Origin: a virus
Virus record (IMG/VR): IMGVR_UViG_3300034159_000051
Span: 65,261 to 129,260 of that record
Length of the DNA stretch: 64,000 nt
Reading direction: 5' to 3' (one strand)
The translations under genes were made by a program, and so were the position numbers. This document shows, one piece after another, positions 13,195 through 56,291 of the stretch; the stretch's first letter is position 1; each line of letters starts with the position of its first letter. The notes beneath the pieces are model-generated. The model was not told the DNA's origin and made no database searches. It saw only the letters and a program-made list of their open reading frames with translations.

Positions 13195-13893
13195 TTGAGC
13201 CAGCATGAATCTCTCACCTTGCTCGATCATGTTGTCGAGCACGAGCGCCTTCAGGCCATCATCAACGACCTCAAGGCCGATCAGAAATCCGTCATCAAGG
13301 CGGCCCGCGCGCAGGGCTTTGATTCAAAAGGGTTTCGCGAGGTCATCAAATACTATCGCATGAGCGAAAGCGAGCGCGAGGAGTTTGAGGCCATTCGCGA
13401 GCTTATGATGCGCGAAATGGGCTGGCTGGCGGACACGCCACTCGGCTCCGCCGCTATCCGCCGCTTTGAGAACGCCTACCTTCCAAAATCGCCTGAGAAC
13501 GGCGCCAACGGCCATTCTGGGCCGCAGGAAGGCGGAGAAGCCCCAGAAGGCTCCGACGCCGCCCCGAAGCGTCCGGGCCGCGCACCGGCCGTCCCAAGGC
13601 CACCAGAAAAGACTCAAGAGGAAAAGGAGGCTGAACTTAAGGAAGAGTTCAGATTAGCTCTTGAGGCCGGGACTGAAGCCGGAAAGCAGTGGGTCGAAAA
13701 CGGGCAAGACCCAAAATATGGCTTTTTAAGCAACCCGTATCTTGGGTTTAACCCGTGTCGCCTTGAATGGGCCAAGGGTTGGCGCTCCGCAACGGGAAGC
13801 GATGGCATGGAGTTGCCGCCACACCTCAAAAGTAAAAAGAAACCCAAAAAGAAGAAGGACGACGACAAAAAAGACGGGAAGGATGGGGAATAA
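13195..13893 (+). CDS. GapR (DUF2312) domain protein with C-terminal extension
   Basis: ERL...DQKSVIKAARAQGFDSKGFREVIK...EREEFEAI...MG; TTG start after AGGGATCAG. Confidence 0.75.
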   Translation: MSQHESLTLLDHVVEHERLQAIINDLKADQKSVIKAARAQGFDSKGFREVIKYYRMSESEREEFEAIRELMMREMGWLADTPLGSAAIRRFENAYLPKSPENGANGHSGPQEGGEAPEGSDAAPKRPGRAPAVPRPPEKTQEEKEAELKEEFRLALEAGTEAGKQWVENGQDPKYGFLSNPYLGFNPCRLEWAKGWRSATGSDGMELPPHLKSKKKPKKKKDDDKKDGKDGE

Positions 13894-14150
13894 TGAAAGA
13901 TTTGACCCCCCTTTACAGGGACATCGAAAAGCTATTGCGTGAGATCGTCACCCAGCACGGCAAAGCTCTTATCGAGACGCAAAGCGAGTACGGCGCCGGC
14001 GCAATCTCCATCAACGTCACAGCGAAAGTTGGAATCGGCGGGAAAAACCATGAATTCTCACTCACGCTGGATGTGGACCGGGACGACAAAGACGAAACCG
14101 ACGACGATGACGACGAAGAGGAGTGCTCCGGAGAATGGAAAATCCAGTAA
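13893..14150 (+). CDS. hypothetical protein, acidic tail
   Basis: TAATG coupling to the upstream gene. Confidence 0.5.
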   Translation: MKDLTPLYRDIEKLLREIVTQHGKALIETQSEYGAGAISINVTAKVGIGGKNHEFSLTLDVDRDDKDETDDDDDEEECSGEWKIQ

Positions 14151-14362
14151 AAATTGTGTCTCGCCCGACCCTCGAAATCAAGGTCACGCGCGGGGATACC
14201 CTGGAAACAAACAGCGACGTCCAGGTGTGGGTGAACGATTTTCTTTTTGTCTCAATCCATTATGATTGGCGCTTCACCTCAAACGCTCATCAATGGGATC
14301 TGGGAGAGCAAATCGCTGGTGCTCTAAGGAAGGCCGTCAAAGAGCACCCTGGGGTATCGTAG
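14135..14362 (+). CDS. hypothetical protein
   Basis: GGAG RBS before ATG 14135. Confidence 0.5.
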   Translation: MENPVKIVSRPTLEIKVTRGDTLETNSDVQVWVNDFLFVSIHYDWRFTSNAHQWDLGEQIAGALRKAVKEHPGVS

Positions 14363-14410
14363 CCGTCCGGTTTTTGTGGTATCGTGGCTGGATTAAAAGA
14401 AAGGGATCAG

Positions 14411-14731
14411 ATGACAAAAGAAAAACCAGTGAAGCCGCCGCGCGGCGTTGTCGCCATCATCGCCGGTCCGGATGGCCACGTTTGGGCGACCGCCAATGAT
14501 TTCAACGATTACAGCCGAGACCGAGATAGCGAACAGCTCTGGGCGCAAACAATAAAAGTGAAGGAATTTGTCGCCTTCGAGCTTTTTAATCGGTCATGTA
14601 ACCAGAATATCATCGGCGTAATTGAAGCGCACGAGCGCGAGGCCTTTATGCAGAGGCTCATTAGCAAAAGAGGCTTTCGCCTCACCATTCAAGCAATCGG
14701 CTACGAGGGATCAGATGACAAGCAATTATAG
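14411..14731 (+). CDS. hypothetical protein
   Basis: AGGGATCAG immediately before ATG 14411. Confidence 0.6.
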   Translation: MTKEKPVKPPRGVVAIIAGPDGHVWATANDFNDYSRDRDSEQLWAQTIKVKEFVAFELFNRSCNQNIIGVIEAHEREAFMQRLISKRGFRLTIQAIGYEGSDDKQL

Positions 14732-15710
14732 GCGACCTAGCGATCTTCCGGGGCGCTACGCCCCAAGAGGCGGCGCCGCCGACGACAAAAAGACGGCGAT
14801 GCAGCGCCAAGAAGAAAGAATCAAAGAGATCCTGGGGCCTTGGTGCACCGTCAAAGACAAGAATCCGCCGCATCCTATTTTCCCGCGCCATGTCCGTGAT
14901 TCTCTTCAGAAATGGATGATCGAACTCACGCCCGAGGCGGCGGCCGGACTAAAAGCGCTCAAAACTGAGCCCAGGCGGTCCGCCCTGCTTCACGGGAAAC
15001 CGGGAACAGGAAAAACCTCTTATACGCACACATTCGCGGCGCATATGGGGCTTCCCCTGGCGATCGTCGATTCCAACCGCGTCATTGAAAAATGGGTAGG
15101 AGAGTCGGCGGCGAACTGCGGGCGTCTCCTCAAGGCGATGGATAGCGTCTACGATCAATGCCTCATTTTCTTCGATGAGATCGACGCCCTGGCGACGGCG
15201 CGAACCGGCGAGGGCGGGGCATCCAGAGAGCGCGAGCAGGCCATGAACGTTCTCATGACCGGTCTGGAGGATTACAAGGGCATCTGGGTCGCAGCCACCA
15301 ACCTTGAGTCGAACCTGGACGGCGCATTCTGGCGGCGTTTCAATTTGCAGGTCCATATTCCGATGCCAGGGCCTGCGGAGCGCTTTGCAATCATCCGAAT
15401 GTACGCGGAGCCGCTTTATCCAAGCGATGACGCCACCCAGCTTTTGGTCGACGCCACCGCAAACGCATCGCCGGCGCTCATCAAGGATTTGATCCAAGGC
15501 GTGAAACGAAACATCGTTTTGTGGCCGATGATCTACCCAGGCCGCGAGTTGATCCCATCTGATCTATTTAGGGATGTCATCACCTCCCTCTCTCCGCCTC
15601 CAAAACAAGAAAAGCCGCCGCTATGGCTTACGGAGAGCGCCGTTGACGATCTCGATAGAATGGACTGGCCCTGGCGGGATACGCCGCCCGAAGGAGAAGA
15701 CGAGGAATGA
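14715..15710 (+). CDS. AAA+ ATPase
   Basis: Walker A GKPGTGKT, KWVGES pore loop, Walker B IFFDEID, AATN...LDGAFWRRF. Confidence 0.9.
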   Translation: MTSNYRRPSDLPGRYAPRGGAADDKKTAMQRQEERIKEILGPWCTVKDKNPPHPIFPRHVRDSLQKWMIELTPEAAAGLKALKTEPRRSALLHGKPGTGKTSYTHTFAAHMGLPLAIVDSNRVIEKWVGESAANCGRLLKAMDSVYDQCLIFFDEIDALATARTGEGGASREREQAMNVLMTGLEDYKGIWVAATNLESNLDGAFWRRFNLQVHIPMPGPAERFAIIRMYAEPLYPSDDATQLLVDATANASPALIKDLIQGVKRNIVLWPMIYPGRELIPSDLFRDVITSLSPPPKQEKPPLWLTESAVDDLDRMDWPWRDTPPEGEDEE

Positions 15711-16102
15711 CAACCCCATCCAGAACGCCGCGAGATGTTATGAAGGCGCCTGGGAGTGTCCGGGCCGCTCTAGAGCGCAAAACGGCTGCGCCTCCAGAAA
15801 ATCCCGCATTCGAGCCGTACCAAAGGCCGGGCGGCTTCAAGGGCGGCCCCAAAAAAAGCAGGCACTTTGACGAGCCGGATTATATCCGGCCGTTCATCCT
15901 CGCGACCCAAGACGGCAAGCCCAGCGCCGATCGTGGCGTAGGGATCGCGCGCGATTGCGTCGGCGGCGTGTGCGCCGGTGCGCAACCGAATGTCACAATC
16001 CTTTATCCGAGAGGAGGGAAGGGAGTCCCGGTCGTCGGGGACTGGAGAGACATATATAGATGGTGGATCAAAGGCTATCCGAAATGCAAGCTCCCGGTTT
16101 AG
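15707..16102 (+). CDS. hypothetical protein
   Basis: ATGA-coupled to the AAA gene. Confidence 0.5.
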   Translation: MTTPSRTPRDVMKAPGSVRAALERKTAAPPENPAFEPYQRPGGFKGGPKKSRHFDEPDYIRPFILATQDGKPSADRGVGIARDCVGGVCAGAQPNVTILYPRGGKGVPVVGDWRDIYRWWIKGYPKCKLPV

Positions 16103-16110
16103 CCGCTGGC

Positions 16111-16139
16111 TTGCGTAGCGATTAAGCGGAGGTTATAGT
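16111..16139 (+). promoter_or_regulatory. sigma70-type promoter for the ORF-Tas-array operon
   Basis: TTGCGT-17 nt-TATAGT. Confidence 0.55.
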
Positions 16140-16291
16140 CTTTGAAAGAGGGTCGGCCCAGAGAACATATCCATTCATAGGCCGTATTGCGGTTGCCGAC
16201 TTTCTTTCAAAGCCGCGCCGGGGCCAAGCGCTGCCTGTAACCCGATACCGGTTTTCTCTGGCGCGGCTTTGAACAAACGAAAGGGATCAGA

Positions 16292-17086
16292 ATGGAACAC
16301 AACAAAGCAACGGAGACGCCAAGGTTCGCTACGCCTCCGGTGTTTGCCGTCTCTCAATTCGAAAAACAGCGCATGCTCATCCTCCATGCATGGTATTCCG
16401 ATTTTATCGCTGAGGGCGGCAAGCCGGTTGAATTTATGCGCGAGGTTATCGTGCGTATCCACCGCGTTCAGACCGTTTTTGACGGCAAGCTGTCCGTCAA
16501 CGCGTTGTTCGAACCCATCCCGCCCCGGGCGGATGATAACCCCTTCGATTCCTCTTCGGCTGGCCCGGTTTCTGGCGCCGACGGCCACACCACCAACGCC
16601 AGCCGATCCCCCAATGAGCAGGGCCGAAAGGATGGCGCCGAAAGGCTGGTCGCTGATCGCCCTGCTCAGCATGAAAGCGCCTCCGGCCAGGAAGCAGACG
16701 CTCAAGGTCGCGAGCCGAGCGCCGGAAGCGCTCCCCAAGACGGCGGGCGAGGTCATAATGACCTTGCCGGCAACGGCCGCCACGTTAGCGCCTCGCCCGT
16801 CCGTCGAAACACCGGTCCCAATGAGCTGCAGCGGGAAATCGCCCGAGAAGTCGCCCAATCGGCCGCCAAGACGATCCTGGAAACATTCCGGTTCGCGAAC
16901 GGGTCCGCCCTCGGCGAGGTTTATCTTAACGACCTCGAAAACTACGAGATGAAAAGCTCCGTTGACGCCTTTGTCGCCCGGCAAATCCGGCTCGCGTTCA
17001 AAGGCCACCCAAATTGCCGGGTCAAGGAGCTGCCTCTTGGGACCATTGAGGCGATCGTCAGCCGAGCCAACAAAGAGGCCGAGTGA
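16292..17086 (+). CDS. hypothetical protein co-transcribed with the Tas-like gene
   Basis: AGGGATCAG RBS; stop overlaps the Tas start (GTGATG). Confidence 0.65.
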   Translation: MEHNKATETPRFATPPVFAVSQFEKQRMLILHAWYSDFIAEGGKPVEFMREVIVRIHRVQTVFDGKLSVNALFEPIPPRADDNPFDSSSAGPVSGADGHTTNASRSPNEQGRKDGAERLVADRPAQHESASGQEADAQGREPSAGSAPQDGGRGHNDLAGNGRHVSASPVRRNTGPNELQREIAREVAQSAAKTILETFRFANGSALGEVYLNDLENYEMKSSVDAFVARQIRLAFKGHPNCRVKELPLGTIEAIVSRANKEAE

Positions 17087-17949
17087 TGGGCGAGGATATC
17101 GAAAGGCTCGTCGAGCAGATCCGCTATTGGCACCGGCAGCGCTGTTTCGCGATGGAACAGCGCAAGCGATCGGTTTTGGCCACGGCGGCTTTTTTGCGCA
17201 TCGACCTCGGCTGGAACCCGGACCTTCCTAAAAAAGAGCGCGACGTCATCTCCGCCAAGGCGCTCGACATGCTTAAGCCGGGCGGCGTCGCCCCAGAACA
17301 TCCTATGTTCGAAATGATCATGGCCTCCCATGCCGCGCGGGCGCCGTTTCTCGGCGTAGAGACAAAGGCGACGAAACAAATGGAAGCGCTCGCCAAGACG
17401 TTGCCGGTCTGGAACGCATGGGCGCGCGACGTCCGGGCGTTCGGCCCGCGATCGCTTGCCGTCATTGTCGGAGAGGCTGGAGACATTGGCTCCTACAGCA
17501 CGCATTCGAAGCTTTGGAAACGCATGGGCCTCGCCGTCATCAACGGCGTGCGGCAGGGCGGCCTGAAAAAGACGGCCAAAGCCTCGGAATGGATCGAGCA
17601 CGGCTACAACGCCAAGCGCCGCGCATCGTCCTTTGTGATCGGAGATTGCCTTGTGAAGCAGGGCGCGGAGTTCCGCGAAGTCTATCTCGCCAGGAAGGAA
17701 TATGAGCGCGCCAAGGCCATCGAGCGCGGTCTGATCGTTGCGCCGGCCGCCAAGATCCCAAAAGGCCAGGAGGAGCATTACATCTCCGACGGCCACATCC
17801 ATAAGCGCAGCCAGCGCTACATGGAAAAGAAGCTCCTGCGCCGGTTATGGCAGGAATGGCGGAAGATCGGCAGGGAGGACATGACCCAACCTGGAGACGC
17901 CGACATCCCGCCGCTCGCTATGGAGCGCGTTAACGAGATCGCCGCATGA
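17083..17949 (+). CDS. TasA-like Nop-domain (IS110 C-terminal-like) RNA-binding protein, no RuvC/HNH
   Basis: Helical N-terminus (RYWHRQR...RKR), then VRAFGPRSLAVIVGEAGDIGSYSTHSKLWKRMGLA (IS110/IS116 C-terminal/Nop signature) and HIHKRSQRYMEKKLLRRLW; no DEDD domain; array starts 7 nt after the stop. Confidence 0.8.
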   Translation: MMGEDIERLVEQIRYWHRQRCFAMEQRKRSVLATAAFLRIDLGWNPDLPKKERDVISAKALDMLKPGGVAPEHPMFEMIMASHAARAPFLGVETKATKQMEALAKTLPVWNAWARDVRAFGPRSLAVIVGEAGDIGSYSTHSKLWKRMGLAVINGVRQGGLKKTAKASEWIEHGYNAKRRASSFVIGDCLVKQGAEFREVYLARKEYERAKAIERGLIVAPAAKIPKGQEEHYISDGHIHKRSQRYMEKKLLRRLWQEWRKIGREDMTQPGDADIPPLAMERVNEIAA

Positions 17950-18868
17950 GCGGCGCGCGGGAGGCCAGTTCAGCTACGCCGAGCGGCCGCTTGGTTATCG
18001 CCTCCCGCGACTCGGTTAAGCAGGGCCAGCGTACTGACGCCGAGAGGCTGGTTATGGATCGCCCTGCTTTCGAATCAGGAGAGGCCATTGGCTAAGAGCC
18101 GCAAGGACATACTGCATCCGCCTCTCCTTTCCTTTTTCTCGGGTCACAGCAAACGAGCCGATAGGCCACGTCAACCTTTCCCGAGAATCCGGTTAAGCAG
18201 GGCCTTGCCAATAGATCCGAAAGGCCATGGTCCGGACGCCCTGCTTTCCCTTTTGCGAGGCCCAACACCAGCCGCCGAAAGGCCATCCTTTCTGCGCCTC
18301 GCAATCCCTTTTCCTTGGGCCAATACGTTCGCGCGAAAGCCAAGCTCGCATCGCCCAAGGTTCCCACTTTGCGAGGCCAAACTCGCGCTGCCGAAAGGCC
18401 ATGGTTTCAGCACCTCGCAATCCCCTATGGGCGGGTCCAAGTCTCGTCGCCGCAAGGCCGAGGACCGAATTCCCGCCCAACCCAACGACGGAAGGCCAGC
18501 GATCGCGCTCCATCGAAGGTCATCGAATTGGCGCCTTCCGTCCCCCTCATTCAAAGTTTGCCGGGCCATTCATGAATTGCCGCACAGCCAAAGAGCTAAC
18601 GCCCGGCGCCTTCTTTGTAGGGCCAGAACTATCGCGCCGGAAGGCCGCGTCGACTCTGCCCTGCAAAACTATTTCGCGAGGCCAGCTAGCGATTGGCGAA
18701 AGCCCAAACCAAAAACGCCTCGCGATCCTCAACGACGGAAGGCCATATTACGCGCGCGCTACAGCGCCATGGACTTTTCGCCTTCCGTCTTTCTATTCAG
18801 AGTTTGCCAGGACAGCCTTCTAATGCCTAACGGCCACCCCTGCTTTTCCTGGCGCTCTTCACAAGAGT

Positions 18869-18945
18869 GGTCCCGTAGCTCAACTGGACAGAGCGCCAGC
18901 CTTCTAAGCTGGGTGTTGGGGGTTCAAGTCCCTCCGGGATCGCCA
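18869..18945 (+). tRNA. tRNA-Arg(TCT), embedded in the array
   Basis: GGTCCCG acceptor, CCAGC-CTTCTAA-GCTGG anticodon arm, GGTTCAAGTCC T-loop, encoded CCA. Confidence 0.95.
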
Positions 18946-19323
18946 ACCCTTTGCCGGGCCGGATTACTATCGCCGCAAGGCTATCCACGAAGCGCCCGGC
19001 GATCCCTTTGCGAGACCTCCATACGGATGCCGAAAGGCCAAAAATGGGACGTCTCGCATCCCTACAGCCCGGCCACCTCCTGCGCGCCGAGAGGTCAGTC
19101 AAACCACGCCGGGCTACTTCTTGCAGGGCCAAATCAGATGCGTCGAGAGTCCATTTTTCCGGCCGCCCTGCATCCTATCCGCTTCGGCGGGCGCGCGGCC
19201 GCGGATGGAAAGTCGAAAGGCCGCCCTTGTCTTGCCGCGCGCAACCCTTTGCCGGGCCACTGCCTAAGCGCCGAAAGGTCAGGTTATCACTGCCCGGCGA
19301 TTCATTTACAAGGATGCGATTTC

Positions 19324-19623
19324 TTGAACGACTTTCCGAAAGCTCTCAATGAATGGCAATCCAAGCTCTACGATCTCGGATACCCGGGGCCTTATGAAGC
19401 GGGATCGATGATGATTGCCGCTACGCGAAAAAGAAGAATCGATAATTTTAGCCTTGTTAGATATTCCCCCAGGGACTGGCATGCCGAAGTAACATTCAAG
19501 CCCGACCAAAGGCCGGCAACTGTTGATCACCCTTATGGCTCCCTTGAGGGAAAGGGCAAGACCCCAGAAGAAGCCGTCGCAAATCTCATGATTGCGCATC
19601 CTGAACTTTGGCGGGTAGCATAA
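19324..19623 (+). CDS. small hypothetical protein inserted within the array
   Basis: Non-repeat ~330-nt gap between units 21 and 22; AAGGA then in-frame TTG; ends GKGKTPEEAVANL. Confidence 0.55.
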   Translation: MNDFPKALNEWQSKLYDLGYPGPYEAGSMMIAATRKRRIDNFSLVRYSPRDWHAEVTFKPDQRPATVDHPYGSLEGKGKTPEEAVANLMIAHPELWRVA

Positions 19624-20049
19624 TGCATCCTCTTTGCGAGGCCCATGAACTGGAGCCGATCGGCCTCATATGATTCGCCTTGCAATCCGAACGACGAAAG
19701 GCCATCCGACCTACGCCGAAAGGCTAGTTTGTAATCGCCTTCCGTCACCCCTTCCGCCTCTGGCGGGCGCGCGGCCATACGGCCATAGCCGCAAGGCCAC
19801 TGCAGCGTCGCCGCGCGCAAAGTTTGTCTGGCCTCCATGCGGACGCCGAAGGCCAAGCGTATAGCGCCAGACAAACCCATTCCGACGGGCCATGGGAGTC
19901 TCGCCGAAAGGTCGTTCTTCAGACGCCCGTCGGAACCTTCTTGCGCTGTGACTGGCGAAGCAGTTATAGGATCCCTTGCGGTCTGAGGGAGGGAAGCCTG
20001 ATCCGGTTCAGTTTTGCGTTAGTGGGGACACGCAAACACGGATCATCCT

Positions 20050-20937
20050 ATGATTTTAGGCCGGCGCCGAAACACGCCTATTTCGCTCGCCTCATGCGCA
20101 GGCAGCTATGGAGCCTCAGCAAACGGTCGGCTCATCGTCCGCCCTCAAGGCCCGGTAAACTCGGGCGCAGCCAACAAGAAGGATGAGGGCGACGCTCCGT
20201 GGAGACCGGAAGGACTTTCCGAAGCAGAGGTCGTTCAGCAGATCACAGAGCCACTCAGGGCCTTCTTTGAAGCTATAGAGCCCGTGCGACCGCGCAAAGC
20301 CACTGTAGCCGTCCAGTCCGATCCCTTGGGCCTTAAAACCGGAGCCTACGCCCGCAGGCCCAAGACATTTCCGAACAAGCCGACGAAGGAGCGCCTGGAT
20401 CGCGCGAGGGAGGCCGGCGAGTGCCTGGACGATCGCCCGATCCTTAGCGACAGGGGCGAGAAGCTTTCCGAGACGATAACCGAGATTACGCCGACCTTGC
20501 GCAACCTGAGAACGCGAGGCACGATCGACTCGAATGAATATGCGGCGGCTCTAAGGCTTTGCCAGGACTGGCACGGCGCCCGGTTTCGCGGCGCGGCGAC
20601 CGTCCGCTATCGCGAGCGGGTCGACGGCGAGGGCGGCCGGGATTACGAGAGCGATTACGTAATTACCTGCCGACAGAGCGTCCATTCGGCTTTGCGGTCG
20701 GTGCACAAAATTCTGAGCCCGGCGCTCGCCTGGGTCATTTCGACGATGGGGGACGCCCCTCCCCTTTCCAAGCTCGGCGAATATTACGCGCCAGACAAAG
20801 GCGTCAACGTCCAGAGCACGCGGGGGGCCGATGCGCTCCGCTTTGCGCTCGCGATCCTGTGCGAGCACTACGGCATAGACCACCGGCTTGTGCGGCTGTC
20901 AAAATCGACGGAGACCATCGTCGCAATGATGGGATGA
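20050..20937 (+). CDS. late-gene regulator-like protein (Q/DUF6456-like)
   Basis: LRNLRTRGTIDSNEYAAALRL..DW...RVDG...ALRFALAILCEHYG pattern seen in alphaproteobacterial prophages; start uncertain. Confidence 0.55.
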   Translation: MILGRRRNTPISLASCAGSYGASANGRLIVRPQGPVNSGAANKKDEGDAPWRPEGLSEAEVVQQITEPLRAFFEAIEPVRPRKATVAVQSDPLGLKTGAYARRPKTFPNKPTKERLDRAREAGECLDDRPILSDRGEKLSETITEITPTLRNLRTRGTIDSNEYAAALRLCQDWHGARFRGAATVRYRERVDGEGGRDYESDYVITCRQSVHSALRSVHKILSPALAWVISTMGDAPPLSKLGEYYAPDKGVNVQSTRGADALRFALAILCEHYGIDHRLVRLSKSTETIVAMMG

Positions 20938-20951
20938 CGCATGCAGGAAAA

Positions 20952-21167
20952 CTAACAGGGGCCGCCCTCCCTTGTCTTAAGGTCGCCGGCTCTGACAGCC
21001 TTGACCCACTCTATGGCCTTTTCCAGCGCATCGATTTGGGCCGCGCTGGCAAGATGGAGCGCCGTCCGGTAGCCCGGCGTGGTTTGCCCGATGACGAGGT
21101 GATCGCTGAAGGTATTGTACGAGACCTCGATTGCGCCGAACTTCCTAAAAAGCGAAGCGTCACCCAT
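20952..21167 (-). CDS. hypothetical protein
   Basis: GAGGTG RBS; follows the nucleotidyltransferase. Confidence 0.45.
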   Translation of the reverse strand: MGDASLFRKFGAIEVSYNTFSDHLVIGQTTPGYRTALHLASAAQIDALEKAIEWVKAVRAGDLKTREGGPC

Positions 21168-22158
21168 TGATCACCACCTCTCTGTAAACATCGGCGACAA
21201 AGTCATCGCACCATTCGTAATCAGGCTTCTCAGGAAGAGTCGATTTGATAGCCGCCGCCTCCACCTCCGCGAGGAGACGCTCGATCTCTTCCGCCACTGG
21301 CGCGTAGGCCAGCTTCCCGGTCTTGATCTCAATCAGATGCGCTGCATCTGGCCGAGGAAAGGTCACAAACCCCGTCGACAGGTATTCCAGGCACTGCGTC
21401 CCGACGCGGACGGCGTGGCTGAGCGCTTTCCAGTCAATCCCCTCGTTGCGTTCAGCCTGGAGCGCCCGCTCGCCATATTCATCGACGATGCGCTTGTAGA
21501 TCGCATGCGCCTCTTTCAGAGACACGGTGAACGGCGCTTTGCGCTCACAAACAACGAGGTGGCGGATCACTGCGCCATTGCCGGGGTTCTCGATATCCTC
21601 GATTCCGGCGTGCTCCGTCGAATGCGTAAAACTCTCCACCGCCCAAGCGAAGTCGGAGAGCTTCCGAATCGGACCGTTCTTTTCGATAAAGCTAGCGAGC
21701 AGATTTGTGATTCCACGAGCTGCGGCGACGCGAGATCCCTTGATGCCGTATTTTGCAGCCTGCTTGCGGCAATACCCAAGGAACGGCGCGCACTGGCGTG
21801 ACACCAGCCGATGTCGGTTGTCCCAGATCTCCGCCCACTCCTCGGAAAAGTCGTGATCGGCTCCGCATTTGAGGAGCGGCGTCGCGAACAGCATATCCAA
21901 GGCGACTGTCTGCCCCTCGCAGAACAGCCTCAAGAACTTAGCGAGCGAGTAGCTCTCAAAGTCGGTGTCGCCGGCCGTGTTTTTTCGAGTATGCCCTCCG
22001 ACGCTCGTTTTGGCTTGCCGGTTGATCGTCTCTTTGGCCCGGCCGAGCAGGATATCGCGCGCGCCTGGGATATGGACCTCTTTGATGTCAAGGTCGGATT
22101 CCGGTGTGGCCGTCCCGTAAAGGTGCGACCCAAATTTCATAGAAATGATTGTTCTCAT
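21160..22158 (-). CDS. Pol-beta-superfamily nucleotidyltransferase (Nuc-transf/RlaP-like)
   Basis: FGSHLYGTATPESDLD motif; DWKALSHAVR...F.RPDA..L.EIK.G; STLPEKPD. Confidence 0.85.
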   Translation of the reverse strand: MRTIISMKFGSHLYGTATPESDLDIKEVHIPGARDILLGRAKETINRQAKTSVGGHTRKNTAGDTDFESYSLAKFLRLFCEGQTVALDMLFATPLLKCGADHDFSEEWAEIWDNRHRLVSRQCAPFLGYCRKQAAKYGIKGSRVAAARGITNLLASFIEKNGPIRKLSDFAWAVESFTHSTEHAGIEDIENPGNGAVIRHLVVCERKAPFTVSLKEAHAIYKRIVDEYGERALQAERNEGIDWKALSHAVRVGTQCLEYLSTGFVTFPRPDAAHLIEIKTGKLAYAPVAEEIERLLAEVEAAAIKSTLPEKPDYEWCDDFVADVYREVVING

Positions 22159-22171
22159 TGAATAAATTCCT

Positions 22172-22408
22172 CTATTTCCAAAATTTAGCATGTGGATATT
22201 GTTTGCTGACAAAGCGTTTCGCAGCTTCGCGGTTTTCCGCGGCGACGTATTTTGCGATGCTTCCGCTCATCGTAAAGCACATGAAGAACTTCGATGTGCG
22301 ATACTCTTTCCTTGTGATGTAGACGCGGCGGAGATAAACCACCTCCCCCGGCTTCGGACCGTCCAATTTTGTCCGCAATACTTCCTTCGACCGTGACAGC
22401 GTTCTCAT
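22172..22408 (-). CDS. hypothetical protein
   Basis: TAATG coupling to the HD gene. Confidence 0.45.
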   Translation of the reverse strand: MRTLSRSKEVLRTKLDGPKPGEVVYLRRVYITRKEYRTSKFFMCFTMSGSIAKYVAAENREAAKRFVSKQYPHAKFWK

Positions 22409-22953
22409 TAGTGAATGATCCCTGAGTAGTTTCCGAGGATGTCGCGCAGGCGCTTCAGCAGAATCGGGTCTGCGCCATCCAGAACATCAAGTAAGGCGTT
22501 CATCTCTCGAAGGTACACCTTGGCGAAATTTGGGTCTTTTTCGAAGATCGAATGCGCGTTCGATATGCAATCCGCTGTCTTGAGCGTCTTGGCGTCATCC
22601 GGCGCCGTAGCCAACCGCTCAAGCGTGCGCTGCTTCCGCGCGGCCCGGTTGAGGCCGGGGGCCGCTTTGTCGTCGGTCAGCCAATAAACGAGATCGCGAA
22701 CCTCAGAACCGAATATCTCTTTGATCAAGTCTAGCGTGATTTCGGTATCCTCAACGACATCATGCAGCCACGCCGCCGCCTCCATCTGAACGGTGTAGCC
22801 GCGCCCTTCGCGAGCAGTCGATTGAAGGATTTGAACCACCTCGGCAGGATGGACGATGTATGGTTCCTTGCCGTCTGAATATTTCCGCGTCTGCCCGATC
22901 GCAGCATGAGCTGCGGTCGCAAATAGTCTGGCGCGCTCGACGATATCTGTCAT
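22408..22953 (-). CDS. stand-alone RelA/SpoT-type HD hydrolase (small alarmone hydrolase-like)
   Basis: AH..QTRK...PYIVHP...AAAWLHDVVEDT...LTDDK...KTADCISN. Confidence 0.85.
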   Translation of the reverse strand: MTDIVERARLFATAAHAAIGQTRKYSDGKEPYIVHPAEVVQILQSTAREGRGYTVQMEAAAWLHDVVEDTEITLDLIKEIFGSEVRDLVYWLTDDKAAPGLNRAARKQRTLERLATAPDDAKTLKTADCISNAHSIFEKDPNFAKVYLREMNALLDVLDGADPILLKRLRDILGNYSGIIH

Positions 22954-22982
22954 TCGATCTGATCCCTTTGTTTGTGGCCGTT

Positions 22983-23216
22983 TTACCAGGAATAACGAAG
23001 AAGAACCAACTCATCATCCTCGACGCCGTTCTCGCGCAAATGCGCCAGCAAAGGCGCGTTCTTGACCGGGTCGCCGAACTTCCGCTCATTCGCAATCGAC
23101 ATGTGGATGACATACACGTCGTTGCCAAGATCGCGCTCCATCCACATCCGCTCGATCACTTCCCTGACCGCTTGCGGCGTCGTGAGATCGACGTCCAAAT
23201 ACCAGACCTTCTTCAT
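22983..23216 (-). CDS. hypothetical protein
   Basis: AGGGATCAG before ATG 23216. Confidence 0.55.
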   Translation of the reverse strand: MKKVWYLDVDLTTPQAVREVIERMWMERDLGNDVYVIHMSIANERKFGDPVKNAPLLAHLRENGVEDDELVLLRYSW

Positions 23217-23281
23217 CTCTTCTGATCCCTTAGTTATTTTTTGAATTTAACCGATTTAACTACAAATGGCAAAACCTAAAT

Positions 23282-23359
23282 TGGTAGACTCGGCGGGAGT
23301 TGAACCCGCGACCTTGGAGTTAAAAGCTCCCTGCTCTAACCGGGCTGAGCTACGAGTCT
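23282..23359 (-). tRNA. tRNA-Lys(TTT)
   Basis: Reverse complement folds as a cloverleaf; loop CTTTTAA; CCA end. Confidence 0.9.
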
Positions 23360-23369
23360 GCGTCGGTAA

Positions 23370-23444
23370 TGGTGCCCCCGCGAGGACTTGAACCCCGAAT
23401 CTCCCGCTTACAAGGCGGATGCCTTACCGTTCGGCTACAAGGGC
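23370..23444 (-). tRNA. tRNA-Thr(TGT)
   Basis: TCCGC-CTTGTAA-GCGGG anticodon arm; CCA end. Confidence 0.9.
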
Positions 23445-23577
23445 GCAAATTGTGAAAAGGGAAAGGACGGCGCGCGGACGCTGAAGCTTGGACGCTTAGC
23501 GTTTGGTGGTCGTTCGTGTCTTTCGGGGCGCGGTCATCATTCTGGATGGATAGCCTGTTTTGGTGACCGGGTCAAGG

Positions 23578-23653
23578 TGGCTGGAGCGGAAGGACTCGAA
23601 CCTTCGCGTGGAGGCTTCAAAGGCCCCTGCCTTACCAACTTGGCTACGCTCCA
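23578..23653 (-). tRNA. tRNA-Gln(TTG)
   Basis: GGGGC-CTTTGAA-GCCTC; T1-A72; CCA end. Confidence 0.92.
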
Positions 23654-23655
23654 AT

Positions 23656-23733
23656 TGGCGCGTTCGGCAGGACTTGAACCTGCGGCCCCCGGTTTCGTAG
23701 ACCGGCGCTCTGATCCAACTGAGCTACGAACGC
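23656..23733 (-). tRNA. tRNA-Arg(ACG)
   Basis: CCGGT-CTACGAA-ACCGG; CCA end. Confidence 0.92.
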
Positions 23734-23903
23734 GCAAACTGGTGCCATAGAGTGCTTTCGAGACACCGACCAAACGCAGATCAGCGGGATGGCAGTGCAG
23801 ACACCATCCAAAGGCGCTCGGATCGAACGAGCCGCTACCCCTGTCCCCCGCGGATTTCTCCGCCGCTGACGCGCATTCTTGTCTCATTGCGCCCGGCCGC
23901 CTG

Positions 23904-24125
23904 TCAAGATTTCTGGAATAGCCGGCGCCATTCCGCTTTCGCGGTGTCACGGCGGTTCAAGGGATGGTCGTCGCTCCACTCGCCGATGTCCGCCTCGCGA
24001 ATGTTCAGGACTTCCGGCGCAATGCAGCGGTTCGCGTAGCGCGTATGCTCCAGGACGTCTTTGATCTCGTCCGGCCCGATTTCATCTAAGTCGATGATTT
24101 TAATTGTCAGTTCGTAGGCTTTCAC
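23904..24125 (-). CDS. hypothetical protein
   Basis: GTG start after AGGGATCGG; EADIGEWSDDHPLN motif. Confidence 0.55.
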   Translation of the reverse strand: MKAYELTIKIIDLDEIGPDEIKDVLEHTRYANRCIAPEVLNIREADIGEWSDDHPLNRRDTAKAEWRRLFQKS

Positions 24126-24312
24126 GGTCCGATCCCTTGTTTTTCTCGGCGAGGTAGCTGCGCATCGCCTCCGCAATAGATTCCGGCACCTCATTGAGGC
24201 GCTGATACCGCCATAGCGTTGTATAATGGAGGCGCAACCGTCGACAGAGAGGCGCTTTCCAGCGCCGCCCGTAGAGTTTTATGGCCGCTTGTTCGAACTC
24301 GGCCCCTGTCAT
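24100..24312 (-). CDS. small HTH protein
   Basis: LYGRRWKAPLCRRLRLHYTTLWRY...VP; ATGA-coupled to Ro60. Confidence 0.6.
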   Translation of the reverse strand: MTGAEFEQAAIKLYGRRWKAPLCRRLRLHYTTLWRYQRLNEVPESIAEAMRSYLAEKNKGSDRESLRTDN

Positions 24313-25949
24313 CCCTGGATGAAATCCCTGATCAGGGTTGGGACGGCTCCATCCATCCCGGCGATATCCAGCATGCCGCCGTCGTTCGGGTCTGCGATCG
24401 AGAAGTTCGTCGCGGTCATCGCGGCGACGATCAGTTTCGCCGGGATGCCGGATTTCTTGCGGTAGCTCTGCAAAGCCTGGACCGGGTGAATATCTCCGAA
24501 CCACGTTTCGTTGTCCGTCCAGATCACGAAGGCGTCGTATTTCCATCCGTGCTTTTCCGCCTCGATCATCGGTAAGGCGCAGTCAGTGCCTCCCATTTTC
24601 TGGGTTGCGATATAGGCGACCACGTCATCGAGACGCTGACGCGGAGAGATCTGCATCGGCGTCAGGCCGCAGCCGATCTTGCCGTGATATACGCCATCAA
24701 ACCGGCTCGGATACGGCCCCGTTGTGAAGCCGTAGCAGGTCGCATTCGGCTCAATGGCGAGCGTCGACAAGGCCATCGCCGCCGACGCCTCACGGCACGA
24801 CAGGGCCGATCCTGCGATCTGGTCCGTCATGGATCCCGACAGATCGAGAGAAACCATGATGCGCTTGTTCGTCGGATCGACGTTCTCAAATGCGGCGTAG
24901 AACGCTTCGTCCAGGGCATCGACGATGCGCGGGACCGGAGTCCAGGATTTTCCGCCGCGCACGCCGTGTCCGCTCCTATAGACGACAAGCGCCTGCAAGA
25001 TCGAAAACGGATGCACGCGTTCGGCGCGCAGGTCATCCTTGAGCCGGAGCGCGACGTGTTGCCAGTTCTGCGGATCGATCGCGCCGCACGATGTCATCGT
25101 CGCGAGGTTACGGATCAGGGCCGTCAATTTGAGGTGAGGAACCATCGCGCGCCAGACGTTCGGGTCGGTGAGCGCCTCGGTCGGGATCGCCTCCCACGGC
25201 AGGCGGTGGATCGCTATCAGGGCGCGCAAAAGGCGGTTTTGCTCCGTGTCCGAAACATCAAGATCCATCGCCTGAATGTGGGCCTGCACAATCGGCGGCA
25301 GGTCGGCGTGGTTATGCTCTTTCCCGCGCGCCCAAAGGTAAAGCGCCTGTCTGGAGACGTCGTCGCCTGCTCCGCGCCCGGCCAGCTCGATTGCGCGCTT
25401 GTGCGTGAAGCCAACATTAGACCGGTACTTGATCATCTGATAGGCGAGCTGTTCAGTTGTCCGCGCCCGATACCACGCTGCGATGACGCGCTTCATGGCG
25501 CGGCTCGAAAGACCGCGGCCGAGGCCCTCGCAATCTTTGAACCACTGGAAAAGCGTGCTCGCTGTGCGGCATACTTTCGGAACCATAGCGAAGGCGGCGC
25601 GGCGCGCTTCGTCATTATCCATCGAGGCGGCTCCGAGCGCGAGCGCGAAGATCCCGGCGTCTTGTTTGGCCGCACGCCCTTCGTGGGAGATTTTGGCGAT
25701 CGCCTCGGCTGTGCGCCACGGGTCCGCGGCCCAGCACGAAAGGACGGCGCCGGCGTTCTCGCGGGTCAGGTTTTTGGCTTGCTGGTAATAGGTCGATTCA
25801 GAGCTGCCAAGCTTAATGAATCGATCGAGACGGGTCCAGTCATCGACCGGGAAGGCGTAACCGCCGGCGTGGTTCGGAACCTGGATTCGGTTGGGAATCG
25901 GCTCGTTTTGCGACGTTCTGTTTGGGGAATAAAGTTTCGTGTAAGACAT
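24309..25949 (-). CDS. rsr: Ro60/TROVE ribonucleoprotein (TROVE + vWA)
   Basis: QVPNHAGGYAF..DDWTRLDRF..LGS...TYY; LTALIRNLA; VHPF; vWA LDLSGSM, GGTDCALPM, TDNETW, HPVQAL, SIADPND.GMLD..GMD. Confidence 0.95.
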   Translation of the reverse strand: MSYTKLYSPNRTSQNEPIPNRIQVPNHAGGYAFPVDDWTRLDRFIKLGSSESTYYQQAKNLTRENAGAVLSCWAADPWRTAEAIAKISHEGRAAKQDAGIFALALGAASMDNDEARRAAFAMVPKVCRTASTLFQWFKDCEGLGRGLSSRAMKRVIAAWYRARTTEQLAYQMIKYRSNVGFTHKRAIELAGRGAGDDVSRQALYLWARGKEHNHADLPPIVQAHIQAMDLDVSDTEQNRLLRALIAIHRLPWEAIPTEALTDPNVWRAMVPHLKLTALIRNLATMTSCGAIDPQNWQHVALRLKDDLRAERVHPFSILQALVVYRSGHGVRGGKSWTPVPRIVDALDEAFYAAFENVDPTNKRIMVSLDLSGSMTDQIAGSALSCREASAAMALSTLAIEPNATCYGFTTGPYPSRFDGVYHGKIGCGLTPMQISPRQRLDDVVAYIATQKMGGTDCALPMIEAEKHGWKYDAFVIWTDNETWFGDIHPVQALQSYRKKSGIPAKLIVAAMTATNFSIADPNDGGMLDIAGMDGAVPTLIRDFIQG

Positions 25950-52756: not shown

Positions 52757-53404
52757 ATGGCAAGGAAACCGATAAAGGGATCAGAACCACAGTGGCCGGC
52801 CTATAATGTAGAGCGTCGCCCGATCACCGAGCTTCGTCCTTACGAAAAGAACCCGCGCACACACAGCGCTTCGCAAACGACCCAGATCGCGGCGTCGATG
52901 CTCGAATTCGGTTGGACCTTCCCGGTCCTGATCGATGAGAAAGGCGAACTGATCGCCGGTCATGGACGCATCCAGGCGGCATTCATGCTTGTGACGGGCG
53001 GGTTCGAGCTTGGCGGCTCCATCCAGCCGCCACGCCCCGAGTTCACCGAGGCACCCTGCATCGTCGCCAAGGGTTGGACCGAGGCGCAAAAGCGCGCCTA
53101 TGTCATTGCCGACAATAAACTCACACTCAACGGCGGATGGGATGAAGACCTCCTTAAAGTCGAACTGGCCGAACTGAAAGACTTCGGCTTCGATCTCGCC
53201 CTTACCGGCTTTGCCGACGATGAACTAAACTTGATCTTTCATGGCTGGTCATCGGACATCGATCTGATCGACAAGCATGGCGAAAACCTCGACGGCATCC
53301 TCGCCACTCTCAAAGTCAAGGTCGATCAGGAAGCGACCGAGATCGCTAAGGCTGCGATCATCAAGGCGCTCGATGAGAATGGGCTGAAGTATGAGCTTGT
53401 CTGA
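52757..53404 (+). CDS. ParB/Srx-like N-terminal domain protein
   Basis: LRPYEKNPRTHS..Q..QIAAS..EFGW..P.LID...IAGHGR...ADNKL...WD. Confidence 0.85.
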   Translation: MARKPIKGSEPQWPAYNVERRPITELRPYEKNPRTHSASQTTQIAASMLEFGWTFPVLIDEKGELIAGHGRIQAAFMLVTGGFELGGSIQPPRPEFTEAPCIVAKGWTEAQKRAYVIADNKLTLNGGWDEDLLKVELAELKDFGFDLALTGFADDELNLIFHGWSSDIDLIDKHGENLDGILATLKVKVDQEATEIAKAAIIKALDENGLKYELV

Positions 53405-54248
53405 TGATGAAGGGCGGAGGCTCAATCTTCTTGTAGCCTACCCTTATATGACCGCCAGCATCATCAAGATTTTAGCCGAGAATCAGAGTCGAGTCCGGTT
53501 CCTTCTCGATTCCGGCGCTTTCACTGCCTGGAAGGCGGGCAAGCCAATCGCGATTGATGATTATTGCCGGTTTATCGAAAACCTGCCGATCAAGCCGTGG
53601 CGATATTTTACGCTCGATGTCATCGGCGACCCCGCTGGCTCGCTCAAGAATTATGAAATTTTAATCAAGCGAGGGTTTAAGCCAGTTCCGATTTTTACGC
53701 GAGGCGAAAGCCCATCGGCGCTCGATGAGTATTACAAAACCTCGGACGTGGTCGGCATTGGTGGGTTGGTCGGAACTCAGAAAAATCGCGGCTTCGTTAA
53801 TGGCATCATGAAGCATGTTGGCAAGCGTCGGGTCCACTGGCTCGGGTTCACTAGCACCGAATATCTCAAGCAGTATCGGCCCTATATGTGCGATTCCTCA
53901 TCCTGGGCCGGGGCGCTTATTTTTGCTTCCTTGAAAATCTACGACAAGGGCGGGCGGTTCGTTGCCTGCCAGAAAAAGGACTTCGTTCGGCATCCATCGC
54001 CAGATATCGTGCGCCTTCTCCGAGAATACGAAATCGACCCCATGCTTTTTGCTAAAGCGAGCAATTGGAAGAACTCAGGCAAAGGCGATTATCCTACCGA
54101 AATGGTAGCGTTTCGATCCTTCGTGAAATTTCAGCGTGAAGTTGGGACCGAACTCGGAACCAAAATATTCATGGCCGTCGCATCTGATTGGCAGACGAAA
54201 CTCTCGCTTGAAGCTTACGATTTTTGGGATCGCAAGCGAGTAGCCTGA
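53391..54248 (+). CDS. TGT-fold DpdA-like 7-deazaguanine DNA-insertion enzyme
   Basis: FLLDSGAF, LDVIGD, IGGLV, VHWLG, CDSSSW; next to the que genes. Confidence 0.6.
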   Translation: MSLSDDEGRRLNLLVAYPYMTASIIKILAENQSRVRFLLDSGAFTAWKAGKPIAIDDYCRFIENLPIKPWRYFTLDVIGDPAGSLKNYEILIKRGFKPVPIFTRGESPSALDEYYKTSDVVGIGGLVGTQKNRGFVNGIMKHVGKRRVHWLGFTSTEYLKQYRPYMCDSSSWAGALIFASLKIYDKGGRFVACQKKDFVRHPSPDIVRLLREYEIDPMLFAKASNWKNSGKGDYPTEMVAFRSFVKFQREVGTELGTKIFMAVASDWQTKLSLEAYDFWDRKRVA

Positions 54249-54391
54249 GCGATTCAAAGCTGCATTTCGGTCTGTGGTTTTTGGCGATGAAAAAGTCAAC
54301 ACCTTTTTTGTATTAAGCAACGCGAAGCATTATCCAATCCCCTCGAAGCAGTTTAGGGTCCTCTCGAATTCAACCTTTAGACGGGGGTCTA

Positions 54392-55183
54392 ATGACGAAA
54401 GCACTTGTGGTTCTTTCAGGTGGGCAGGATAGCACGACGGTTCTATTCTGGGCCAAGCAGCAATTCGATGAAGTTCACGCGATCACCTTCGACTATGGGC
54501 AGCGGCATCGTTGCGAGATCGGCGCGGCAAAGAAGGTTGCGGAGCTGGCCGGGGTTGCCTCGCATGAGGTGATTGTTGTTGGGCCGCTCTTAAGCGGGCG
54601 CTCGCCTCTTACAGATCCCAGCACGGAGCTTGAAACCTATACCGACTACGCCAGCATGGACGCGACGATTGGCGAGCGCCGGGAATTGACCTTCGTTCCG
54701 ATGCGTAACGCCTTCTTCCTGACGCTTGCGGCAAACCGGGCCGAAGTTCTTGGATTACATGATATCGTGACCGGCGTTTGCCAGATGGACAATGCCAATT
54801 ACGATGACTGCCGCAAGACGTTCGTCGCCGCGACCGAGGATTACATCAATAAGGCGCTCGGCCATGACCATCGCGGGACGCCACCAATCAAAATCCATAC
54901 GCCGCTGATTGATTTGTCGAAGGCTGAGAGCATTCACTTCGCGCAGACGCTTCCCGGCTGCATGGAGGCCCTGGCCTATTCTCACACCTGCTACGCCGGC
55001 GAGTATCCGCCGTGTGGCAAGTGTCATGCCTGCGTGCTGCGTGCTCACGGGTTCGAGGAAGCGGGTGTTCCTGATCCGCTTGTCCTTAGAGCGTATGGTG
55101 CTGCGGCTTCCCATACCTTGCCAGAAACCGCAAACTATGACGAAGAGAGACAAAAAGCACGTTTGGGTGGCTTGCTCGCATGA
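54392..55183 (+). CDS. queC: 7-cyano-7-deazaguanine synthase
   Basis: VVLSGGQDST, FDYGQRH, TFVPMRN, YDDCR, HTCY...CGKCHAC. Confidence 0.95.
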   Translation: MTKALVVLSGGQDSTTVLFWAKQQFDEVHAITFDYGQRHRCEIGAAKKVAELAGVASHEVIVVGPLLSGRSPLTDPSTELETYTDYASMDATIGERRELTFVPMRNAFFLTLAANRAEVLGLHDIVTGVCQMDNANYDDCRKTFVAATEDYINKALGHDHRGTPPIKIHTPLIDLSKAESIHFAQTLPGCMEALAYSHTCYAGEYPPCGKCHACVLRAHGFEEAGVPDPLVLRAYGAAASHTLPETANYDEERQKARLGGLLA

Positions 55184-55869
55184 TTATCGATCAACCCGTC
55201 TCAAAGACGGTAAGCGCCCGCCTTCGTGCTGAAGGTATCCGCTTCTTCGCTAATGACGCCATCGGTGAGCATCTTCGTCCGGGTGAAGCCGAAGCCCTTG
55301 AAGCCGAAGTGGCGCAAGTTGCCGGGGCAATGCTCGATGCGCTGGTGATTGACCGCGCAGAGGATCATAACACCAAGGGAACGGCGAAGCGACTCGCCAA
55401 GATGTTCGTGCGGGAAATCTTTCGGGGCCGGTATCAGCCAAGGCCGGACGTGACCGACTTTCCGAACGTGAAGCATGTGGACGAGCTTTACACGGTCGGT
55501 CCCATCACTGTCCGGTCAACATGCTCGCACCATTTCGCGCCGATTATGGGAAAGGCTTGGGTAGGGGTGATCCCCTCCGAGCGCGTCATCGGTTTGTCGA
55601 AGTTCAACCGGCTTATCGATTGGGCCATGAGCCGCCCGCAGATTCAGGAAGAGGCGGTTGTCATCGTCGCAGATCTGATCGAAGAGGCGATCCAGCCGCG
55701 TGGCCTCGCCGTGGTTATCAAGGCTGAGCATCTGTGCATGACCATGCGCGGCGTTCGCGAGCACGAAACCAACATGGTGACATCCGTTACGCGCGGCCTG
55801 CTTCGCGAAAGACCGGAAGCTCGCGCCGAGTTCTTCTCCATCATCAAGGGGCAAGGGTACTCCGCATGA
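55180..55869 (+). CDS. folE: GTP cyclohydrolase I
   Basis: STCSHH, IGLSKFNR, RPQIQE, AEHLCMTMRG. Confidence 0.95.
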   Translation: MIIDQPVSKTVSARLRAEGIRFFANDAIGEHLRPGEAEALEAEVAQVAGAMLDALVIDRAEDHNTKGTAKRLAKMFVREIFRGRYQPRPDVTDFPNVKHVDELYTVGPITVRSTCSHHFAPIMGKAWVGVIPSERVIGLSKFNRLIDWAMSRPQIQEEAVVIVADLIEEAIQPRGLAVVIKAEHLCMTMRGVREHETNMVTSVTRGLLRERPEARAEFFSIIKGQGYSA

Positions 55870-56291
55870 GCGCCATTACAGCATCGCGCTACCACGACAT
55901 CAGTTGTGGACACCGGGTTTACGGCCACGAAAGCAAGTGTCGACACGCGCACGGCCACAACTACCGCGTGCATTTTAACTGTCTCGCGCCAAGCCTTGAT
56001 GAGATCGGCCGGGTGATCGACTTCTCGGTGATCAAGTCCATGCTCTGCGAATGGTTAGAAACGGAGTGGGATCATAAGTTCCTGCTCTGGGAGGAAGACC
56101 CCGGCGCGGAGATCATGCGCCAGTTCGATGCCGAGTCCGTCAAGCTGGTCCCCTTCAATCCAACTGCCGAGAATATGGCGCGCTACCTCGTTGAGATCAT
56201 CGGCCCGCAGCAGCTCGCCGGAACTGGCGTCACCCTTCATTCGGTCACGATAGAGGAGACGCGCAAGTGCAGTGCAAGTTACAGCATTTGA
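55866..56291 (+). CDS. queD: 6-carboxy-5,6,7,8-tetrahydropterin synthase
   Basis: GHRV...CRHAHGHNY, VIDF, WDHK, PTAENMA, EET. Confidence 0.92.
   Translation: MSAITASRYHDISCGHRVYGHESKCRHAHGHNYRVHFNCLAPSLDEIGRVIDFSVIKSMLCEWLETEWDHKFLLWEEDPGAEIMRQFDAESVKLVPFNPTAENMARYLVEIIGPQQLAGTGVTLHSVTIEETRKCSASYSI

Follow-up and report, generated by a model that had tools for sequence, protein, structure and literature searches.

A stem-loop TIGR-TasA system is encoded by a 129-kb tailed phage in a stretch of 64,000 nucleotides (the window, positions 65,261 to 129,260 of IMG/VR virus record IMGVR_UViG_3300034159_000051). It comprises tasA, which codes a nuclease-free Tas protein, and an array of 30 hairpin guide units, four of which lie inside a companion gene that precedes tasA. 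An earlier note, made from the letters alone, had proposed at this place a nuclease-less TIGR-Tas-like RNA-guided system with a 26-unit array. The locus belongs to an already published class, the stem-loop TIGR arrays with TasA, and the probability that it is such a system working by the guide-directed mechanism proposed below is put at roughly 0.87. The analysis establishes the family and fold of the protein, its lack of a nuclease domain, the structure of the units with its covariation, the link between gene and array in relatives, and the absence of self-targets in the phage genome.

The TasA protein

17086-17949, + strand: tasA, nuclease-free Tas protein of 287 amino acids (NCBIfam, phmmer, AlphaFold2 (AF2), Foldseek, PHROGs)

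The tasA open reading frame (ORF) ends at 17949, as claimed earlier. The length of 288 amino acids given for its product holds from the GTG at 17083 selected by the ORF caller, while the ATG at 17086 (287 amino acids) agrees better with the database copy of the protein (P0001) and with the starts of its relatives. The product matches the NCBIfam model NF052498 (TIGR_Tas_endo) with an E value of 1.4e-30 and 106.9 bits, the cut-off being 100. The sole real match in a sequence search of the PDB is the TaTasR-tigRNA-DNA complex (PDB access code 9MTY), whose chain 9mty_A is found with E 3.2e-9 by phmmer from the single sequence and with E 8.1e-13 by a profile of 59 sequences.

The AF2 model built from that alignment has a mean predicted local distance difference test score (pLDDT) of 89.6 and is nearly all helical. 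Long helices form its amino terminus (residues 2-40, 49-63 and 75-103) and are followed by a helical carboxyl-terminal domain, the only strands being two of 3 residues each. The model has no beta-sheet or DEDD domain, and a Pfam scan of the protein gave no family at E<=1, in agreement with the nuclease-less protein that had been predicted. A Foldseek search of the PDB, which carries out the comparison with Nop and IS110 folds suggested in the earlier note, gave ten matches at E<=0.001, all of them chains of TasR (9MTY) or TasH (9VZX, 9W02, 9W03, 9W04 and 21KL). The IS110-family recombinases ISCro4 and IS621 come next (E 0.01-0.06) and Nop5 (3id5) occupies rank 40 with E 1.2. The ORF 17086-17949 thus codes a Tas protein, and this protein is a TasA because it has neither a RuvC nor an HNH domain.

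A search of a large protein database yielded 637 homologues at E<=0.001, the named ones coming from Aminobacter and Mesorhizobium. Database homologues are often 400-470 amino acids long (P0005, P0013, P0018 and P0070), their gene callers having run on into flanking guide arrays, and the resulting tails are of low complexity and rich in A, S, P and H. Listed protein lengths in the TasA family are therefore unreliable.

The guide array

16556-16803, + strand: upstream sub-array, 4 guide units at 16556-16606, 16615-16668, 16677-16731 and 16740-16803 (covariance model R1, eye, folding, parsing)
17956-18854, + strand: downstream sub-array 1, 15 guide units (stem scan, hand parse, alignment, R1), listed in the next three lines
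17956-18009, 18018-18069, 18077-18128, 18136-18187, 18195-18246, + strand: units 1-5
18253-18304, 18313-18360, 18369-18420, 18428-18479, 18487-18542, + strand: units 6-10
18559-18608, 18614-18667, 18674-18725, 18734-18789, 18805-18854, + strand: units 11-15
18951-19300, + strand: downstream sub-array 2, 6 guide units at 18951-19002, 19009-19058, 19066-19115, 19122-19172, 19191-19242 and 19249-19300 (stem scan, hand parse, alignment, R1)
19634-19935, + strand: downstream sub-array 3, 5 guide units at 19634-19685, 19693-19746, 19767-19818, 19822-19876 and 19880-19935 (stem scan, hand parse, alignment, R1)

All 26 units that the earlier note had counted between 17956 and 19935 are present, the first one starting 7 nt past the tasA stop, but the array is larger by the four units at 16556-16803 and totals 30 guide units, 26 downstream and 4 upstream of tasA. 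Downstream units are 48-56 nt long and have an outer stem of 8-11 bp that includes the box C:box D pair. Each is laid out as the 5' arm of the outer stem, CCA (box C), a spacer of nine nucleotides (N9), YG (box D) and an inner stem of 2-4 bp with a mostly GNRA loop, followed by a second CCA, N9, CG and the 3' arm of the outer stem. All 30 units can be parsed into two halves, each made of box C, N9 and box D, on either side of the inner element, with a single N10 in the second spacer of unit 19. Unit 8 reads as quoted in the earlier note and the inner stem of unit 13 is swapped (GGC-GAAA-GCC), as had been noticed.

Among the 26 downstream units box C is CCA in 16 first and 13 second boxes. The first box D reads CG in 14, TG in 5 and AG in 5 units and ends in G in 24 of them; the second one is mostly CG, as reported before (19/26, with TG in 3/26), and ends in G in 22/26. 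In their MAFFT alignment (A1) the columns that are conserved correspond to the boxes and to the adjoining G-C pairs. The G+C content of the spacers is 48%, compared to 57% for the window.

The dual-spacer stem-loop architecture is borne out by covariation. Standard pairs fill 95.1% of 309 cells of A1, while shuffled controls reach 73.6 +/- 1.5% (none of 500 attains the observed value) and a control in which pairing partners were slid gives 30-48%. Two-sided, compensatory change is found at 10 of the 12 pairs. The outer helix on its own is 95.7% paired and changed on both sides at 8/9 pairs, so that the flanks have the variable but palindromic character of the stem-loop class, and the architecture matches the descriptions of stem-loop TIGR units by Faure et al. 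2025 and Xu et al. 2026.

A covariance model built from units of this array (R1) was run with filters off over the whole window. It recovers all 26 downstream units and three upstream ones (16556-16606, 16616-16667 and 16745-16798, with E from 5e-7 to 1.4e-4). All 29 matches (E<=1.4e-4) flank tasA and have its orientation (+ strand), and nothing comparable occurs elsewhere in the window. The fourth upstream unit, 16677-16731, was identified by eye, folding and parsing. The downstream hairpin units are thus real and above chance. That repeat finders would miss them had been anticipated correctly: Tandem Repeats Finder (score 30) reports no array but only two trivial short repeats, and the direct-repeat families of a general repeat finder are merely 60-83% alike, below what defines a CRISPR array.

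Some units share their scaffold. The inner seven bases of the stem are common to 11 of 435 unit pairs (units 6/8/22, 10/14, 11/16/21, 2/5/b and 20/24), and units with the same stem often share also the linker that precedes it. The spacers of units 6 and 8 are identical at 12/18 positions (81% identity over 64 nt) and those of units 10 and 14 at 9/18. Pairs with the same stem (n=11) have on average 5.4/18 spacer letters in common, against 4.5 for the other 424 pairs, a difference without statistical significance (p 0.30 by Mann-Whitney; p 0.07 by Fisher for >=9/18). Units 6 and 8 are a clear recent duplicate and the only clearly related pair. Two histories could account for this: rapid divergence of the spacers once a unit has been duplicated, or exchange of spacers in scaffolds that persist. 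The stem shared by units 20 and 24 is GCGCGCGGCC; each of these two units, and no other, is preceded by an extra small hairpin in the linker (19173-19190, CCGC-TTCG-GCGG, and 19747-19766, CCGCC-TCT-GGCGG).

Association of gene and array in related loci

Related loci number 113, of which 80 are viral, kept from 103 viral stretches with a TasA relative, and 33 are from bacterial genomes; most of the latter are Hyphomicrobiales or further alphaproteobacteria, and some belong to other phyla. R1 finds units in 25/80 viral loci, with 56/56 matches on the tas strand, and in 14/33 bacterial loci, with 30/30 matches on the tas strand. The association of gene and array thus recurs in relatives, always with the array on the tas strand. 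The arrays of relatives seem to be much shorter, up to about 7 units being detectable in them; R1 can be expected to miss divergent units in these loci because it was trained on the present array alone.

Proposed mechanism and targets

Processing, dimer binding, DNA targeting and repression are modelled here on the published relatives. A transcript of the early-gene strand would span the companion gene, tasA and the array, and would be cut in the short linkers to give hairpin tigRNAs of about 50-56 nt. About one third of the linkers have CUU at the stem base, the cutting would probably be due to host RNases, and RNase P and RNase Z acting at a tRNA-Arg nested in the array could provide extra entry cuts. 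A TasA dimer is expected to grip each tigRNA through its two pairs of box C (CCA) and box D (CG or UG), leaving the two 9-nt spacers to pair with opposite strands of a single 18-bp DNA site. As the complex has no nuclease it would stay on the DNA and block transcription or replication. The 30 differing guides would be 30 addresses, and the sites specified by them would most likely belong to the host or to rival mobile elements.

Several observations weigh against this guide-directed reading. The family name of NF052498 reads 'TIGR-Tas system RNA-guided endonuclease', and TasA alone cannot be an endonuclease. TM-scores of the Foldseek matches are only about 0.5 with 16-20% identity, so that kinship to TasR and TasH is distant but specific. 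CTT occurs between -8 and +3 of the stem start in 11/30 units (background 14.9%; binomial p 0.003), so the published CUU motif of the stem base is enriched but not general. A scan for sigma-70-like promoters and intrinsic terminators found none on the + strand between 15900 and 20024; the sole promoter-like site near the locus is at 20025-20054 and the count equals that of shuffled sequences.

To the same side of the balance belongs the search for self-targets. Composite 18-mers joined spacer A to the reverse-complemented spacer B, in either order and with gaps of 0-3, and were compared to 650 mismatched A/B pairs. In the 129-kb phage genome the best sites have 2-5 mismatches and the distribution equals that of the control pairs. 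With all 30 units and gap 0, the count of sites with <=2 mismatches is zero both in the phage (expectation 0.2-0.3) and in the 113 related loci, about 1.06 Mb (expectation 0.9-1.1). The guides thus have no near-perfect sites to address in the phage's own genome, and it is for this reason that host or competing mobile elements are the most likely targets. DNA binding by this particular system is expected from the behaviour of its characterized relatives.

The companion gene

16292-17086, + strand: companion gene, 264 amino acids; helical hairpin at the N terminus, disordered linker, conserved domain at the C terminus (codon-position G+C, AF2, profile)

The TGA stop of the companion gene and the ATG of tasA overlap by one base. 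The G+C content at the three codon positions is 0.60/0.39/0.68 in the amino-terminal part and 0.64/0.39/0.74 in the carboxyl-terminal part, a pattern typical of coding sequence and in the same frame for both, and is flat in the middle as in the array. In the AF2 model residues 17-73 and 178-263 are folded, and about 85-175 have a pLDDT below 55 and are disordered. The four upstream guide units occupy codons 89-171, that is, the disordered linker.

An iterated profile finds the carboxyl-terminal domain of the companion in tas-proximal ORFs of 24 further loci of the 113, mostly ending within about 10 nt of the tas start. R1 units lie inside the companion ORF in 8 of these 24 loci (L007-L009, L014, L016, L082, L083 and L085), in L084 one R1 unit overlaps its end, and a looser structural scan adds units within the companion in L010, L018 and L021. 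No description of guides inside a neighbouring gene was found in the portions of the tigRNA literature at hand, which include text of Xu et al. 2026.

The companion belongs to no Pfam, PHROGs or NCBIfam family (Pfam 0/19 members). Foldseek gave nothing better than E 0.13 in the PDB, its weak hits being scattered among uS13, Fpg/Nei and sIHF, and a VIA fold search gave no convincing match (best Z 5.3 with the N-terminal helices, 4.5 with the C-terminal domain). The best score in the ESM Atlas, 0.86, is a lead only. A ParB-like identity was also considered and rejected (hhalign probability 0.1%; no Pfam family in any of 19 members); not being ParB-like, the companion is not the tasParB of Faure et al. 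2025.

A two-protein variant of the mechanism, in which the companion acts together with TasA-tigRNA, perhaps as effector or loader at the bound DNA, and the system goes beyond passive blocking, is conceivable though unlikely. The conserved position of the companion domain next to tas, the base shared by the two genes, the guide units in the linker and the units inside the companion ORF of eight relatives, and of three more by the looser scan, argue for it. It is countered by the lack of a family or convincing fold match, by the absence of the companion from 89/113 loci and by the characterized TasA systems, which function without such a protein (Xu et al. 2026, 10.64898/2026.09.09.750476). 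Somewhat more doubtful still is the fuller proposal of a two-protein TIGR effector whose mRNA doubles as guide precursor, with the guide hairpins set in frame in the disordered linker, so that excision of guides destroys the companion message. If true, the locus would have a built-in switch between production of guides and production of the companion protein.

Other readings of the locus

Targeting of RNA in the manner of box C/D snoRNPs, with guides pairing to host or phage RNA (rRNA, tRNA) instead of DNA, appears very improbable. Tas and Nop5 have the Nop fold in common and the units carry motifs resembling box C/D (Faure et al. 2025, PMC12045711), in a phage rich in RNA-related genes (six tRNAs, a Ro60/TROVE protein and an RlaP-type nucleotidyltransferase). 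Against this, judged by fold and unit structure and with no search aimed at genes for fibrillarin or L7Ae, Nop5 ranks 40th where Tas DNA complexes occupy the top ten, the units have the minimal box C/D letters only and not the longer snoRNA boxes, and all characterized Tas proteins in the published accounts, two TasA among them, bind DNA.

A decayed IS110-family element, with a truncated transposase beside structured repeats devoid of guide function, would explain why PHROGs (PHROG 4285, 'transposase', E 2.4e-22) and some database names ('transposase' or 'IS110 family') label the protein or its relatives so, and why IS110 recombinases are the next-best fold matches after Tas, but can practically be dismissed, being contradicted by the score of the IS110 transposase model NF033542 (16.6 bits, cut-off 140), the missing DEDD domain, conservation of full-length TasA in hundreds of homologues, compensatory change in the paired units and their position on the tas strand across relatives.

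Comparison with known systems

The stem-loop TIGR-TasA assignment agrees with the published descriptions of the class. Stem-loop TIGR arrays with TasA were described by Faure et al. 2025 (PMC12045711), where units of the TasA from a Peromyscus leucopus gut contig (PlTasA) are processed singly. Xu et al. 2026 (preprint, 10.64898/2026.09.09.750476) collected with TIGRFinder 2,559 stem-loop arrays with 17,756 units, about 7 per array on average, and reported variable stems, a CUU motif, arrays on both sides of and within tas, the alternation of C and U in box D, and guides that lie in disordered stretches of the tas coding sequence. The same preprint shows that TasA represses transcription under RNA guidance, that MbTasA represses and binds its target, and that repeat finders fail on stem-loop arrays. 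The structure of PlTasA (Guan et al. 2026, preprint, 10.64898/2026.08.11.744272) features two 9-bp heteroduplexes and stacking on the box C adenine; in published structures the 9 + 9 bp pairing is to opposite strands of one continuous site. The novelty implied in the earlier note is therefore not upheld, as stem-loop TasA arrays are found in Faure et al. 2025, and Xu et al. 2026 already treat guided repression, the C/U alternation in box D and the inability of repeat finders to detect such arrays. The phage locus has every defining feature of the class that can be tested in sequence, and processing and DNA binding would follow by analogy.

PlTasA is, like the phage protein, a solo nuclease-free Nop-domain protein. 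Its tandem hairpin units have variable palindromic stems in place of edge repeats and the box C adenine, and its array is also split in sub-arrays. Compared by description and not by sequence, it differs in having 13 units instead of 30. Short GNRA-type inner hairpins, a tRNA and a small ORF in the array and four units within a neighbouring gene are features of the phage locus relative to PlTasA. MbTasA, BlTasA and the systems of the TIGRFinder catalogue resemble the phage locus in stem variation within arrays, arrays on both sides of tas and guides in disordered coding stretches. Box D has C or U in both, RNA-guided repression is the role to be expected, and the CUU motif near the base of the stem is shared in part. 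In those systems, however, nested guides lie in tas itself, not in a separate upstream gene in a different frame, and arrays have a mean of about 7 units instead of 30; CUU is found here at 11/30 units only.

TaTasR (9MTY) and SpTasH (9W04 and related entries) are the best sequence and fold matches of the phage TasA and have in common with it the coiled-coil and Nop core and dual 9-nt spacers. Both possess a RuvC or HNH domain, and their guides, 36 nt long, derive from exact dual repeats, whereas the phage TasA has neither domain and is associated with hairpin units. IS110 recombinases with bridge RNA (IS621, 8WT6/8WT9; ISCro4, 9T56) share the RNA-binding Nop-like domain; they have a DEDD domain and one bridge RNA, in contrast to the many short guides, the lack of DEDD and the IS110 score far below cut-off of the phage locus. 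The tasParB-tasA operons (Faure et al. 2025, PMC12045711) likewise have a conserved gene in operon with tasA and arrays around and between genes, but their arrays are of the dual-repeat type and the companion of the phage locus is not ParB-like.

Elements interrupting and preceding the array

16206-16273, + strand: long hairpin with an 18-bp stem, just upstream of the companion gene (RNA fold)
18869-18945, + strand: tRNA-Arg (anticodon TCT) between units 15 and 16 (ARAGORN; Rfam tRNA, 65.3 bits)
19324-19623, + strand: small ORF of about 99 amino acids between units 21 and 22, with a TTG start after AAGGA (read from sequence)

The tRNA-Arg(TCT) gene lies 14 nt past unit 15 and 5 nt ahead of unit 16. 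A search of the 113 related loci found no tRNA within the array region of any of them, and the nested gene is thus a local oddity. The small ORF has AAGGA as a ribosome-binding site of its own and a lower G+C content (about 50%; 0.57/0.44/0.49 by codon position) and gave no match in PHROGs, Pfam or NCBIfam. The segment 16195-16285, with the hairpin upstream of the companion gene, folds with -38.7 kcal/mol (z -3.13). The loop of this hairpin begins, by eye, with CCA-N9-TG as in half a unit; R1 gives no match to it, and it may be a degenerate leader unit.

Genome context

The record is a complete virus genome of 129,260 bp with direct terminal repeats, of which the window is the second half. It codes for primase/helicase, single-strand binding protein (SSB), terminase and portal, along with six tRNAs (ARAGORN), so that the host of the locus is a tailed phage, as had been supposed when the system was called phage-encoded. 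The TIGR-TasA locus sits within a long run of early/replication genes on the + strand. Two DNA runs of peat metagenomes each contain the stretch 16200-20100 in one contig and with zero differences, and the virus record may stem from them; among RNA runs none is listed as containing the locus. A megablast search of deposited phages with positions 14000-24000 of the window gave no match.

The gene at 13195-13893 (+), within the same early-gene run, has a product in which Pfam recognizes a GapR-like DNA-binding domain (E 2.4e-11). In Caulobacter GapR is associated with the nucleoid, and an alphaproteobacterial host fits this gene. On the - strand, 21160-22212, 22408-22953, 23282-23733 and 24309-25949 include a Ro60/TROVE protein with a vWA domain, an RlaP-type 'RNA repair pathway' nucleotidyltransferase and an HD phosphohydrolase, with four tRNA genes clustered side by side along with them; the ensemble looks like an RNA quality-control or repair module. 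A queuosine/7-deazaguanine run at 53391-57344 (+), with tRNA-guanine transglycosylase-like, QueC-like, GTP cyclohydrolase and QueE-like genes, suggests that the phage modifies its own DNA. A ParB-like gene (52757-53404) directly precedes this run, about 33 kb from the TIGR-TasA locus.

Biological significance

Most TIGR loci are on metagenomic fragments (Faure et al. 2025, PMC12045711; Xu et al. 2026, 10.64898/2026.09.09.750476). Curated models now name Tas proteins, so that a locus like the present one is no longer missed at the protein level. It is distinguished by the size of its array, a complete phage context without self-targets, the nested tRNA gene and the guides in a conserved companion gene, and bears on the natural targets of TIGR systems, on the origin of their spacers and on processing. 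Because a complete phage genome is available together with 30 guides, self-regulation through near-perfect sites could be tested, and is not supported here. The several units with common stems and linkers but unrelated spacers provide material on how arrays grow, while the nested tRNA and the guides in the neighbouring gene bear on how the guide precursor is made and cut.

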